64,000 bases of DNA, from assembly GCA_963827235.1 (NCBI GenBank), contig CAWHAE010000014.1, positions 397,891-461,890 of the forward strand. Direction: 5' to 3'. Below, one piece after another: positions 43,276-57,551 of this stretch. This DNA is from an uncultured bacterium (GTDB taxonomy: Bacteria > Chloroflexota > UBA5177 > JANWHV01). The position numbers were made by a program, and so were the translations under genes. Each line of letters opens with the position of its first letter. The stretch's first letter is position 1. Under the pieces are notes generated by a model. The model was not told where the DNA came from. It worked only from the letters and a program-made list of their open reading frames with translations, and did not search any database.

Positions 43276-51888
<8,613 letters not shown>

Positions 51889-51981
51889 ACGGCTGTCCTC
51901 TCCTTCACTTCGAGGATCGTGGATGGGTACATCCGGGTTCGCAAGGTAGAACTCACCCTCCGCTTTGCCCGGCAACAAAAA

Positions 51982-52011
51982 ATGGTAACACGAACAGCCC
52001 GCGCTCGGCAA
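51982..52011 (-). promoter_or_regulatory. putative rpoBC promoter
   Basis: TTGCCG-N18-TACCAT with TGn extension. Confidence 0.5.
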
Positions 52012-52226
52012 GGGGGCTGATGCGGTCAATTCATGGTTAATCCACTACCCGTTCCGTTCGGACCGCGGGCGGCGCCTGGAATCGGCCCCGCCCTGGACAC
52101 ACATCGGGAGATGGACGGCTACCCCTCCACTGATCGGGGTAGCCTGGCGATACTCAGTAGGCGCTTGCTGGCTCACCAGTCGAGCCCGCGACGCCTACTA
52201 GCCTGATGCTGCGGTCGAAGGCTCGC

Positions 52227-52397
52227 CTACTTGCCCGGGAACGTCTTGTTTCGGCAGTTCTTGCACACCTTGACCTGCTCGCCGCCGTTGCTCGCGCTAT
52301 AGAGCAGCTTAATCCGTGTGCGGCCACAGGTCGGGCACGATCCCCTGCCGTGGGCCGGGGTGCTTGTGAGACCTTTGCCGCGGTGCGTTTTGCCCAT
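52227..52397 (-). CDS. 56-aa basic Cys4 zinc-binding protein (not in ORF track); candidate ribosome-associated protein
   Basis: MGKTHRGKGLTSTPAHGRGSCPTCGRTRIKLLYSASNGGEQVKVCKNCRNKTFPGK*; purine-rich RBS, promoter and downstream hairpins. Confidence 0.8.
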   Translation of the reverse strand: MGKTHRGKGLTSTPAHGRGSCPTCGRTRIKLLYSASNGGEQVKVCKNCRNKTFPGK

Positions 52398-52512
52398 GTG
52401 CAACCTTTCCCTTCTCCGAATATAGAAGGTCCTTGCAGCCTGCGAGCAATCACTTGTCGCCGGACCGCGCTCAGGCGGCGCCGGTCGCTCGCGACGGGTT
52501 ACAGGCTTTAGT

Positions 52513-52541
52513 AGTGTATGCGAGGGCGGCTACAGCGGCAA
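52513..52541 (-). promoter_or_regulatory. promoter for the 56-aa Cys4 gene
   Basis: TTGCCG-N17-TACACT. Confidence 0.55.
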
Positions 52542-52687
52542 GAGCCGCCGGATCGGCCGGTTCTTTCGCTGCCGCGCGCCCGAGCCTGCACGGTGTATCG
52601 GCCACTCAGTCCACGATGTTGCCGTTTGGTATCGTTCTCATAGGAATCGGAACTATGGATACGCGCCAATCGGAAATGAAGGACCCA

Positions 52688-52717
52688 TTGCCGCGCTTCA
52701 GGCCCAGATGATACACT
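52688..52717 (+). promoter_or_regulatory. atp operon promoter
   Basis: TTGCCG-N18-TACACT with TGn extension. Confidence 0.55.
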
Positions 52718-52750
52718 GAAGCACGCATATTACGAGGAATCGAGTCGTCG

Positions 52751-52975
52751 ATGAAGTCCTCGGATGACTTGCCTGAGCAGCTCGCGCGGTCGGTGGCGGC
52801 TACCACGGCCATCGGGCTCGATTTTGCATGTGTTCTGTTGATCTGTGTTTTCCTTGGCACATTCGTCGACGGCAAGCTCGGAACAGGCCCCTTCGGGCTC
52901 GTGCTCGGCATAGTGGTCGGAATTGCTGGGGGCGGCTACTCGGCGTACACGCTGATTCGCCGCGTATTGAAATAG
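52751..52975 (+). CDS. AtpZ/AtpI family protein
   Basis: LGTFVDGKLGTGP motif, two TM helices, first gene of atp operon. Confidence 0.85.
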   Translation: MKSSDDLPEQLARSVAATTAIGLDFACVLLICVFLGTFVDGKLGTGPFGLVLGIVVGIAGGGYSAYTLIRRVLK

Positions 52976-53039: not shown

Positions 53040-53414
53040 ATGCTTAGGGTTGTCGTCGTCCAAACCATCATGGCTTCGTGTGCCCTGGGCCTCGCTATGG
53101 CAGGCATGCTGCTGCTGGCCGGCCACACGCGCGAGTGTCTCGGCCTCCTGTTCGGGACCGCCGTCGGCGTGTGCAATGAAATGATGATTGCCAACAGGGT
53201 CGCGCGCATCGGCGAGTTTGGCTCAGCGCGCCAGACCGCTATCATGATGCGGATGGGCACGCTCACCCGCTTTCTCATGATTGGCATGGCCACGGTAATG
53301 CTCATCAAGCTGCACTCGACGATGAGCTTCGGCGCCGCCGTGGTCGGCATCGTCTTTCCGATTATCGTGGCGAACTTTGTCGGCGCCCGCTATCTCTTAC
53401 GTCCGGATCTGTAG
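53040..53414 (+). CDS. atpI: ATP synthase protein I (four TM)
   Basis: Four hydrophobic helices, immediately before atpB. Confidence 0.7.
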   Translation: MLRVVVVQTIMASCALGLAMAGMLLLAGHTRECLGLLFGTAVGVCNEMMIANRVARIGEFGSARQTAIMMRMGTLTRFLMIGMATVMLIKLHSTMSFGAAVVGIVFPIIVANFVGARYLLRPDL

Positions 53415-53432: not shown

Positions 53433-54191
53433 GTGAGCATCGCGGTACCAATACCACTTCTGGCCGACGTCTCTACCGAGATCGGCAAGCATCTCAGCAT
53501 TGGCCCAAATCCCAAGCAGGGAGCCCTGATAGGCGACGTGCTGCACGTGGACACGATGCTGAGCACGCTGCTGGTTGCCGCCGTGTTGTTCGCCTTGGCG
53601 TTCTATGTGCGCTCCAAGCTCACCAGCGGCGTCCCGGGTGGGGCACAGAATCTTGTCGAGTTGGTGCTGGAGTTTGTCATCGACACCGCAAAGGGCCAGA
53701 TCGGCGAGGCGCGGGCGCGCGTCATCGCACCGCTCGCGTTCACTCTGGCCATGTTCGTGTTTCTCAGCAACATGGTCGGCCTGATCCCGACCGGTGGCCT
53801 CTTCAAGTCGCCGACCGCCGACATGAACACCACGTTTGCGCTGGCATTCACCGTGATCGGATACGTGGAAGTCATGTCGTTCAGGGCGCGAAAGGCGAAG
53901 GGCTTCTTCAAGCACTTCGTCACGCCGCCTCTGCTGACACCGATTCTCGTCGTGGAGGAGCTCTCCAAACCGATCACGCTGTCATTGCGATTGTTCGGCA
54001 ATATCGCATCCGGCGAGATCATGCTCGTCATCGTGGCCAGTGCTCCAATCTGGCTGCAGTTTGTGCTCGCTCCTACATGGTCGTTCATCTGGGTCGGCTT
54101 CAGTATCTTTGTGGGGGCTGTACAGGCTTTCGTGTTTGTTATGTTGACAATCGCCTACTACGGCATCGGAACGGATACGGAGGGCCACTGA
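53433..54191 (+). CDS. atpB: F0F1 ATP synthase subunit a
   Basis: SPTADMN, TLSLRLFGNI, VQAFVFVML. Confidence 0.97.
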   Translation: MSIAVPIPLLADVSTEIGKHLSIGPNPKQGALIGDVLHVDTMLSTLLVAAVLFALAFYVRSKLTSGVPGGAQNLVELVLEFVIDTAKGQIGEARARVIAPLAFTLAMFVFLSNMVGLIPTGGLFKSPTADMNTTFALAFTVIGYVEVMSFRARKAKGFFKHFVTPPLLTPILVVEELSKPITLSLRLFGNIASGEIMLVIVASAPIWLQFVLAPTWSFIWVGFSIFVGAVQAFVFVMLTIAYYGIGTDTEGH

Positions 54192-54360: not shown

Positions 54361-54657
<297 letters not shown>

Positions 54658-56645: not shown

Positions 56646-57551
56646 TGGATGACAAGGTAACGATCAGCGCCTTCCAGTTTTTCGAAATGTTTCCCGACCA
56701 GGAAGCGGCCCGTCTGTCATCTTGAAGGCCAGCTTTGGCCGAACGGCCCGGTCTGCCCGCAGTGCGGCGGCAAGGATATCACGGCGCGTAAGGGCGGTTA
56801 CTACCGCTGCAACCCCTGCCGGTTCGACTTCACGTCCGCACGGGCACGATCTTCGAGCGGTCGCACGTCCCCTTGCACAAATGGCTCTACGCGATGTACC
56901 AGCTCGTCACGGCCCGCAAGGGCGTGTCATCGCTCCAACTTTCCAAGGAACTCAGCATCACGCAGAAATCGACGTGGTTCATGCTTCACCGGCTGCGCGA
57001 AGTCTGCGGCAACGATTCGATCAAGCTGGCGGGCATCGTCGAGATCGACGAGACGTTCGTCGGCGGGAAAGAGGCGAACAAGCACAAGAGCAAGAAACTC
57101 AACGCCGGCCGCGGGACCGTCGGCAAGGCGATCGTGCTCGGTATGCGCGAACGCGGCGGCGAAGCGCGGGCGATGGTGATTGCGGAACCGCCCAGCGATA
57201 TTCAGTCGGAAGTCACCGCCAACGTCGCGCCCGGCTCGACGATCTGCACCGACGAACACCCGGCCTACAACGGCATGGAGCAGTTCACGCATCTTTCGGT
57301 CAACCAAGCGCCAACGAGTTCGTGAACGGCATGGCGCATACGAACGGCCAGGAAAGCGTCTGGGCGCTGTTGAAGCGCGGAATCTACGGCGTGTTTCACC
57401 ACGTCAGCGTCAAGCATTTGGGGCGGTACGTCAACGAATCGACGTTCAGGCTCAACGATGGTAATGTGCGTCGTCAGACAATGGATCGGATCGCCAGCAT
57501 CGTTGAAGGACGCCGGGCCATCGCCTGACGTACAGGAGGTTGACGGCGTGA
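56646..57551 (+). mobile_element. IS1595-family (ISXO2-like DDE) transposase, multiple frameshifts
   Basis: WPNGPVCPQC Zn ribbon, RKGVSSLQL, VEIDETFVGG, TDE, HTNGQESVWALLKRG, KHLGRYVNE, RLTY. Confidence 0.9.

Follow-up and report, generated by a model that had tools for sequence, protein, structure and literature searches.

The window, the whole stretch of 64,000 nt analysed here, carries on its minus strand a small gene that is almost certainly real and a member of the protein family PF27208 (TP_0214). This family is already catalogued and functionally uncharacterised, and the encoded 56-aa protein (P0001) is a further member of it. The gene is a self-contained accessory cassette, present in some members of the genus and missing from others. 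The family protein may act on the ribosome, as a ribosomal or ribosome-associated protein; we hold this reading tentatively, at somewhat less than an even chance. The features of the locus are given below by their positions in the window.

51982..52011, minus strand: promoter-like site of rpoB, TTGCCG-N18-TACCAT, conserved in the genus
52117..52203, minus strand: two stable hairpins (minimum-free-energy folds), candidate terminator or insulator of the small gene
52227..52397, minus strand: CDS, with its stop codon, for the TP_0214-family zinc-ribbon protein P0001 (56 aa)
52398..52512, minus strand: 5′ untranslated leader of the small gene, ~115 nt, holding a purine-rich RBS-like stretch
52513..52541, minus strand: promoter-like site of the small gene, TTGCCG-N17-TACACT, exact pattern match with a putative function
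52688..52717, plus strand: promoter-like site of the divergent atp operon, same hexamers, exact pattern match
52751-52975, plus strand: ATPase_gene1 (Pfam)
53040-53414, plus strand: AtpI (Pfam)
53433-54191, plus strand: AtpB (Pfam)
54370-54657, plus strand: AtpE (Pfam)

The ORF runs on the minus strand from the ATG at 52397 to the TAG at 52227. Its translation is exactly that written down in the earlier note on this DNA, 56 residues including the motifs CPTC and CKNC. P0001 has a mass of 6.0 kDa, a pI of 10.5 and a net charge of about +11, with 12 Lys and Arg residues versus a single Asp or Glu. The ATG at 52397 was favoured over a TTG at 52403, because the N-terminus of the family (M-x-K-x-x-R-G) is conserved from residue 1. 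The ribosome-binding site noted before is also present: the purine-rich stretch GGAGAAGGGAAAGG lies at 52404-52417, 7-20 nt 5′ of the ATG. The 5′ leader is not conserved in sequence in a second genome of the genus (G001), and its fold was unexceptional (z = -1.69; 13 of 200 shuffles folded equally well). A search of positions 51800-52800 against Rfam gave a single sub-threshold chance match, and none in the leader.

The earlier note had also claimed a promoter with the same hexamers as that of the divergent atp operon. The pattern TTGCCG-N16-18-TACACT was found exactly twice in the 64-kb window, once per promoter, versus 0.02 matches expected, and two matches were reached in none of 100 shuffles. 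Both the -35 and the -10 hexamer of the small gene are kept in G001, amid diverged surrounding DNA. A generic sigma-70 scan did not call this site, because it matches at 8 of 12 positions and the scan requires 9. On the 3′ side of the stop codon, the two hairpins (~52200-52155 and 52144-52117) fold as had been described. The 282-nt spacer that holds them had a z of -2.54, and none of 200 shuffles folded equally well. Because neither hairpin is followed by a U-tract, a terminator role stays putative; the hairpins are possibly a terminator or an insulator. No direct or inverted repeats were found flanking the cassette. Promoter, ribosome-binding site, ORF and two hairpins make the small gene a unit of its own.

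In G001, the ORF has a counterpart with 89% protein identity. The two copies differ by 20 synonymous and 6 non-synonymous codons (dN/dS 0.059). Nucleotide identity is 145/171 (85%) within the ORF versus 106/253 upstream and 59/179 downstream (33-42% in the flanks). As judged from this codon comparison, the small gene is under purifying selection. The case for a gene had been made to depend on homologues and on selection, and both were found: the low dN/dS against G001 stands beside diverged flanks, and more than 1,000 homologous clusters occur across phyla. The window is GC-rich and full of overlapping spurious ORFs of 40-200 aa on both strands, as would be expected if the ORF were a chance open frame and no gene. 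Against this stand the dN/dS value, the diverged flanks, the homologous clusters and a confident predicted fold. The clusters and the comparison with G001 refute a chance frame, and we give it practically no credence. The gene is single-copy in the genome of the window (G000). Contrary to what the earlier note had supposed, gene callers do find the ORF, since a public protein collection already contained P0001 as a gene call from the contig of the window, with a Pfam label.

That precomputed label is PF27208.1; in Pfam 38.1, PF27208 goes under the name TP_0214 and stands for a zinc finger-like domain of that Treponema pallidum protein. The clusters nearest to P0001 in the ESM Atlas were 100% PF27208 'TP_0214' and mostly from Spirochaetota. 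A profile of three sequences, run against 1.84 billion representatives, retrieved 120 at E <= 1e-3 and 32 at E <= 1e-10, most of the 120 aligning over positions 1 to ~50. With a profile of 44 sequences, 1,096 clusters (90% identity) were retrieved at E <= 1e-3, and the best 120 of these were all labelled PF27208. The named organisms among the best 120 were Spirochaetia, Treponema, Sphaerochaetaceae, Rectinemataceae, one Poribacteria and one Anaerolineae. No clostridial member occurred among the named matches of the family searches. The earlier note had pointed to similar small hypothetical proteins from spirochaetes and clostridia; the spirochaetal part of this comparison held, as PF27208, and the clostridial part did not. 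The motif it had given, K.HRG.G...GRG.CP.C.RT..KLLY, agrees with the family consensus, M.K..RGK........RGTCP.C.RT..KLLYE........KVCK.C, which is conserved from the first residue.

The family profile matched the window ORF with E = 2.7e-24 over positions 1-52. In the 44-sequence alignment, P0001 is 37-67% identical to the 43 other, diverse representatives, and M1, K3, R6, G7, R18, G19, C21, P22, C24, K30, C45, K46 and C48 are invariant or nearly so. About nine representatives are without three to four of the cysteines, which were lost jointly while the rest of the sequence was kept (C-P-V-T ... S-K-x-G). Low-complexity tails of Ala, Glu, Pro and Lys are found on about one third of the representatives, and seven of these tails are clearly acidic; both this count and that of the Cys-less forms come from reading the sequences and from a crude regular expression, which recognised the domain in 90 of the 120 representatives. 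A protein of 1,221 aa has 12 repeated partial matches (positions 2-23). Apart from it, no fused form longer than 132 aa was seen among the 120 representatives. Several of the longer representatives resemble read-through artefacts. The proper annotation of the window ORF is TP_0214-family protein. Membership of PF27208 leaves its role unexplained, because a function has been demonstrated for none of the members.

The TP_0214 family is mainly spirochaetal and patchy across phyla. For rpoC of the window, the closest named relatives were from Chloroflexota. Among 401 Chloroflexota genomes, full-length matches were found in two only, G000 and G001. The other 12 Chloroflexota matches (E 4e-5 to 9e-4) covered only the ribbon (model positions 20-52) and lay in ORFs of 108-148 aa. 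In Spirochaetota, the phylum of the named Entomospira genome, at least 84 of 401 genomes had a match at E <= 1e-6, always one each; at most 16 candidates were scored per genome, so that some matches were possibly missed. Scanning one genome for each species with a degenerate pattern gave 344 confirmed loci. The best 80 of the 344 were nearly all spirochaetal, with one Cloacimonadota MAG, and the survey of genomic context is therefore skewed to spirochaetes.

The small gene lies upstream of rpoB in the same orientation, as the earlier note had stated. The start codon of rpoB is the ATG at 51888, preceded by a leader of ~95 nt with the motif GTTGCCGGG and the Shine-Dalgarno sequence GAAGGAGAGG. 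Promoter and leader of rpoB are common to G000, G001 and two further genomes of the genus (G003 and G004). Because this promoter lies downstream of the small gene, rpoB is independent of the small-gene promoter. A terminator-like site called by a generic scan at 52005-51987 was rejected as a terminator, as it overlaps the conserved rpoB promoter. Insertion of the small gene behind the rpoB promoter, considered in a three-way MAFFT alignment, was rejected, as the conserved promoter and leader lie 3′ of the small gene. The assembly has frameshifts in rpoB and rpoC.

On the other side lies the divergent atp operon, with ATPase_gene1, AtpI, AtpB, AtpE and AtpF as assigned by Pfam. From the first atp start codon (52751 in the window) to the rpoB leader motif, the distance is ~780 nt in G000 and ~660 nt in G001, versus 124 nt in G003 and 150 nt in G004. 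A six-frame hmmsearch at maximum sensitivity of the atp/rpoB loci of G003 and G004 found no family member (best E >= 1.2). None was found genome-wide either, with 110/110 candidates scored in G003 and 89/89 in G004, genomes that are 92% and 90% complete. The small gene is dispensable, since these congeners are without a copy both at the syntenic site and genome-wide. The ribosomal protein bS21 is present in 5/5 genomes of the genus, with or without the small gene, and replacement of bS21 by the small gene was rejected on this ground.

The same atp neighbour as in the window is found on a metagenome contig whose copy of the gene is 91% identical. The next relatives, 66% identical to P0001, resemble a protein from Anaerolineae (P0003), and their genes are flanked by one for an FHA-domain protein and a convergent one for a Mut7-C RNase. 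The earlier note had given weight to the rpoB neighbourhood. This weight is not supported: a conserved promoter and leader serve rpoB itself, atp and rpoB stand back to back without the small gene in two congeners, and the nearest relative outside the genus is found in an unrelated context. Most likely the gene occupies a permissive intergenic site next to rpoB and has no operon relationship with it; the adjacency should not be read as an operon.

The context differs between lineages. Of 64 genome loci scanned, 10 had the gene of L17 as the nearest upstream gene on the same strand and four more had rpoA, at loci labelled Treponema or Spirochaetaceae. In this Treponema type, the family gene lies 3′ of rpoA-rplQ on the same strand, often only a few bases away (14/64 genome loci); the scan covered 64 of the 80 loci, the other 16 being left out because the small ORF escaped the regular expression. 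In metagenomes, rpoA and/or L17 was immediately upstream at 27/69 loci. At other spirochaete loci, a PNP_UDP_1 phosphorylase was found upstream (15 loci), and M48 peptidase (11), PGA_cap (12), Mur ligase (11) and BrkB (4) were found downstream, with KsgA seen once and YicC twice. In a GC-rich group from peat and soil, the upstream gene encodes DHH-CBS, molybdopterin oxidoreductase, GH38 or gluconolactonase, and the downstream one is a convergent chemoreceptor gene. Away from the Treponema type, the adjoining genes have no relation to translation.

The T. pallidum namesake is abundant. The uncharacterised 7-kDa protein TP0214 leads Table 4 of a T. pallidum proteome with an NSAF of 19.6 (PMC5015957); its link to the family is through the Pfam name and not through the TP0214 sequence. 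Ribosomal proteins fill much of the same table, with L34 at 13.1 and S18 at 12.5, and the neighbouring number TP0213 is L17 (PMC5015957). The ranking is noisy, as membrane and flagellar-export proteins are also high in it (PMC5015957). The highest level of Tp0214 in that proteome is restated in PMC9200625. A full-text literature search for TP0214 gave nothing relevant beyond these two papers, and a search of the literature on spirochaete ribosome structures found no characterisation of the TP_0214 family.

The AlphaFold2 model of P0001, built from the 44-sequence alignment, is compact (mean pLDDT 84, pTM 0.57), with two short N-terminal helices and a beta-hairpin between the Cys pairs. Foldseek against the PDB gave nothing at E <= 0.001, the best match having E = 1.1 (LIM, FYVE and thymidine-kinase zinc modules). 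The best Z of VIA-align against 48,161 representative chains was 2.2, and 2.3 in a second look. For a model of 56 residues, an absent fold match does not exclude a family. The earlier note had proposed a structural search that included bL38. No significant ribosome match came from it (best E = 1.1), and no ribosomal chain, bL38 included, stood out from the 56-residue model in Foldseek (E = 1.1) or VIA-align (Z 2.2-2.3).

Sequence searches gave the same picture. The 3-sequence profile had no significant match among PDB sequences. The family profile had none against all PDB chains either: the best E was 0.009, for PRDM9 zinc-finger repeats, ribosomal chains were at E >= 0.17, and the bL38 chains were unmatched at E <= 10. 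An hmmscan of Pfam and NCBIfam at E <= 10 returned no ribosomal family, only the generic FYVE, Zn_ribbon_TFIIB, DZR_2, FmdB and Lar. The models of bL28, bL31, bL32, bL33, bL36, uS14 and bS18 were unmatched at this threshold. The description of P0001 as a Cys4 zinc ribbon that does not match the canonical L28, L31, L32 or L33 models was thus borne out. Local scans of P0001 and its relatives with Pfam, NCBIfam, PHROGs and PADLOC gave nothing above threshold.

In the mechanism that we propose, P0001 would be made at a high level and would bind structured nucleic acid, with the conserved segment M-x-K-x-x-R-G at the N-terminus and the basic side of the zinc ribbon as its contact surfaces. The likeliest target would be ribosomal RNA, and P0001 would be a ribosomal or ribosome-associated protein that is non-essential and restricted to certain lineages, comparable to bS21, bS22, bTHX and bL38. 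An rRNA partner was judged likeliest because of the conservation from Met1 onward, the Cys-less variants, the rpoA-rplQ-X arrangement of the Treponema type and the abundance of TP0214. Features of the sequences that plausibly favour a ribosomal protein are the excess of Lys and Arg (12 versus 1 Asp or Glu), the joint loss of cysteines, the single match per genome and the conservation from Met1, which is more typical of small ribosomal proteins. What counts against it is the patchy distribution, the dispensability within the genus and the fact that no solved structure or ribosomal model was matched. The low-complexity tails, some of them acidic, count against it as well, such tails being unusual for ribosomal proteins, and so do the contexts outside the Treponema type, which are unrelated to translation. 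A fuller version of the proposal is that the family is an unrecognised, laterally moving accessory ribosomal protein that binds rRNA, standard in Treponema-type genomes, where it would be co-transcribed with rpoA-rplQ, and acquired as a stand-alone cassette by a few lineages of other phyla, this Chloroflexota genus among them. We regard this version as possible, on the doubtful side.

Several of the same observations would suit an abundant protein, nucleoid-associated or DNA-binding, by which DNA is coated or bent; its single gene would, as many of this sort do, move laterally together with a strong promoter of its own. The protein is small and very basic, and its single-copy gene forms its own promoter-ORF-hairpin cassette. 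Presence and absence within one genus and patchiness across phyla are as expected for an accessory chromatin protein, the mixed-charge or acidic low-complexity tails on about one third of the representatives fit as well, and the abundance of TP0214 suits a nucleoid protein equally as a ribosomal one. We consider such a protein unlikely, as no known DNA-binding family was matched, the tight rpoA-rplQ-X arrangement of the Treponema type points to the translation or transcription machinery, and conservation from Met1 onward is more usual in small ribosomal proteins. That machinery could also be RNA polymerase, with the family protein as a small zinc-ribbon accessory factor on the core enzyme, like RbpA or the small zinc-binding subunits of archaea. 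RNA polymerase genes adjoin the family gene in two phyla (rpoB-rpoC here, rpoA-rplQ in the Treponema type), and several members carry the automatic JGI name 'RNA polymerase subunit RPABC4/Spt4', a generic zinc-ribbon COG label. However, rpoB is equipped with a conserved promoter and leader of its own, and congeners that share this rpoB do without the small gene. The immediate neighbour in the Treponema type is rplQ, with which ribosomal-protein operons normally end, and most other contexts have no polymerase genes. None of the RpoP, Spt4 and RbpA models passed any threshold, and the top-rank abundance exceeds what is expected of a polymerase factor. A polymerase factor is therefore quite improbable.

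We likewise give little credit to a zinc protein without stable nucleic-acid binding, be it a zinc buffer, an adaptor or a miniprotein resembling antimicrobial peptides. Weak similarities to generic FYVE, AN1 and LIM modules are in keeping with it, and a screen of 68 T. pallidum miniproteins for antimicrobial potential included Tp0214 (PMC9200625). On the other hand, no signal peptide is apparent in the sequence of P0001, and the strong conservation of basic residues suggests that the partner is polyanionic. Since members without the cysteines retain the remaining sequence, what the family conserves is not zinc handling.

If the ribosomal reading is true, ribosome composition would differ between congeners, and gain and loss between species of one genus would bear on the plasticity of ribosome composition. 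The family would be another lineage-specific bacterial ribosomal protein, present in relatives of the syphilis spirochaete, and would need a new bL or bS number. The ribosomal hypothesis for the TP_0214 family would be new if proven. Regardless of the outcome, the family is worth a direct experiment, being uncharacterised and found across phyla, with a T. pallidum namesake that topped a proteome list.

Compared with PF27208 at large, P0001 is alike in its full-length consensus, its single-copy gene and its equal length. It differs in its host, which is a Chloroflexota genus and not a spirochaete, and in its context between the atp and rpoB promoters, which was seen in no other member examined. 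A likeness to the N-terminal zinc ribbon of archaeal aMBF1 was found for P0003, of which residues 20-50 matched positions 1-31 of TIGR00270 (E = 3.7e-5); the score was 23.6 bits versus a cut-off of 110 bits, and the helix-turn-helix domain is absent. P0001 and P0002 did not match TIGR00270. The JGI name 'ribosome-binding protein aMB...' is due to this weak ribbon match of P0003, and the likeness is a generic ribbon resemblance only.

The zinc-ribbon ribosomal proteins bL31, bL32, bL33, bL36, uS14 and bS18 share with the family a basic N-terminal segment followed by a CxxC...CxxC ribbon of ~30 residues. They also share the occurrence of Cys-containing and Cys-less forms. The classical cases of such C+ and C- forms are paralogues within one genome, whereas the Cys-less forms of the TP_0214 family are single-copy variants in other lineages, with one match per genome.

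The closest parallels are bL38, bS22, bTHX and bS21, which are likewise small, basic and patchily distributed. Genes of bL38 are sited in ribosomal-protein operons (PMC11851116), as is the family gene in Treponema-type genomes. The precise sites differ: bL38 lies downstream of bL28-bL33 in Bacteroidia, whereas the family gene lies between atp and rpoB here and, in spirochaetes, beside rpoA-rplQ or in unrelated contexts. bL38 is known from Bacteroidia and Borrelia (PMC11851116, PMC10618245). Homology between the Borrelia and Flavobacterium proteins was questioned, and common ancestry was then supported via an intermediate from Rhodothermus (PMC11851116). The word 'zinc' has no occurrence in the main text of the paper on F. 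johnsoniae bL38 (PMC11851116). Lineage-restricted ribosomal proteins of this kind were overlooked or called 'hypothetical' until cryo-EM and mass spectrometry of ribosomes, and the Borrelia bL38 (bb0162) was found only by these two methods (PMC10618245).

The reading frames of rpoB and rpoC, both essential polymerase genes, are each broken into several frames in the window.

48191-51888, minus strand: rpoB, broken frame
43276-48213, minus strand: rpoC, broken frame

Comparison with the intact N-terminal 411 aa of rpoB from the congener G001 placed frame changes in the window's rpoB at ~51234 and ~50958, and over this same N-terminal region the pieces were each 96-99% identical to the G001 protein. 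The window's rpoC consists of two pieces, of 296 aa and 1,290 aa, the rpoC of relatives being ~1,490 aa long. The splits look like single-base indel errors of the assembly, and a reading of the two genes as pseudogenes seems less likely. The assembly carrying the window (G000) has a size of 8.0 Mb and 9% contamination, compared with 4.4-5.4 Mb for four congeners; more than one genome may be present in the bin. The window's contig was assigned to Chloroflexota by its rpoC.

Upstream of rpoB lie a promoter-like site and, following it, a ~95-nt leader (51888-52011, minus strand); both are strongly conserved in four genomes of the genus, as determined from the window and loci L172, L174 and L169. 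Directly downstream of the -10 the leader carries GTTGCCGGG, and ahead of the SD it has an extended stretch of conserved sequence. An Rfam search over the rpoB leader gave no match. The leader may be regulatory. Three housekeeping-type promoter-like sites, all inside 700 nt, have the -35 hexamer TTGCCG in common:

52006-52011, minus strand: TTGCCG -35
52536-52541, minus strand: TTGCCG -35
52688-52693, plus strand: TTGCCG -35

TTGCCG may be the -35 favoured by the main sigma factor of this lineage. Downstream of the atp genes, an ORF (56722-57528, plus strand) matches an IS1595/ISXO2-like DDE transposase domain at the C-terminal end alone (profile positions 109-153 of 153); this ORF is probably an IS remnant.

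Within the TP_0214 family (PF27208), a clade from soil and peat was represented by metagenome loci L110-L160, with a GC content of 58-73%. Its proteins share a conserved C-terminal extension, ...HGKMQKEVEALVPA., and in nearly all of its loci a convergent methyl-accepting chemotaxis gene lies downstream of the family gene. In some representatives of the family (P0027, P0067, P0076, P0083, P0109, P0110, P0118, P0119 and P0122), the cysteines are replaced in concert (C-P-V-T ... S-K-x-G). Because these Cys-less members retain the rest of the sequence, zinc is, on sequence grounds, not needed for whatever the TP_0214-family fold does.
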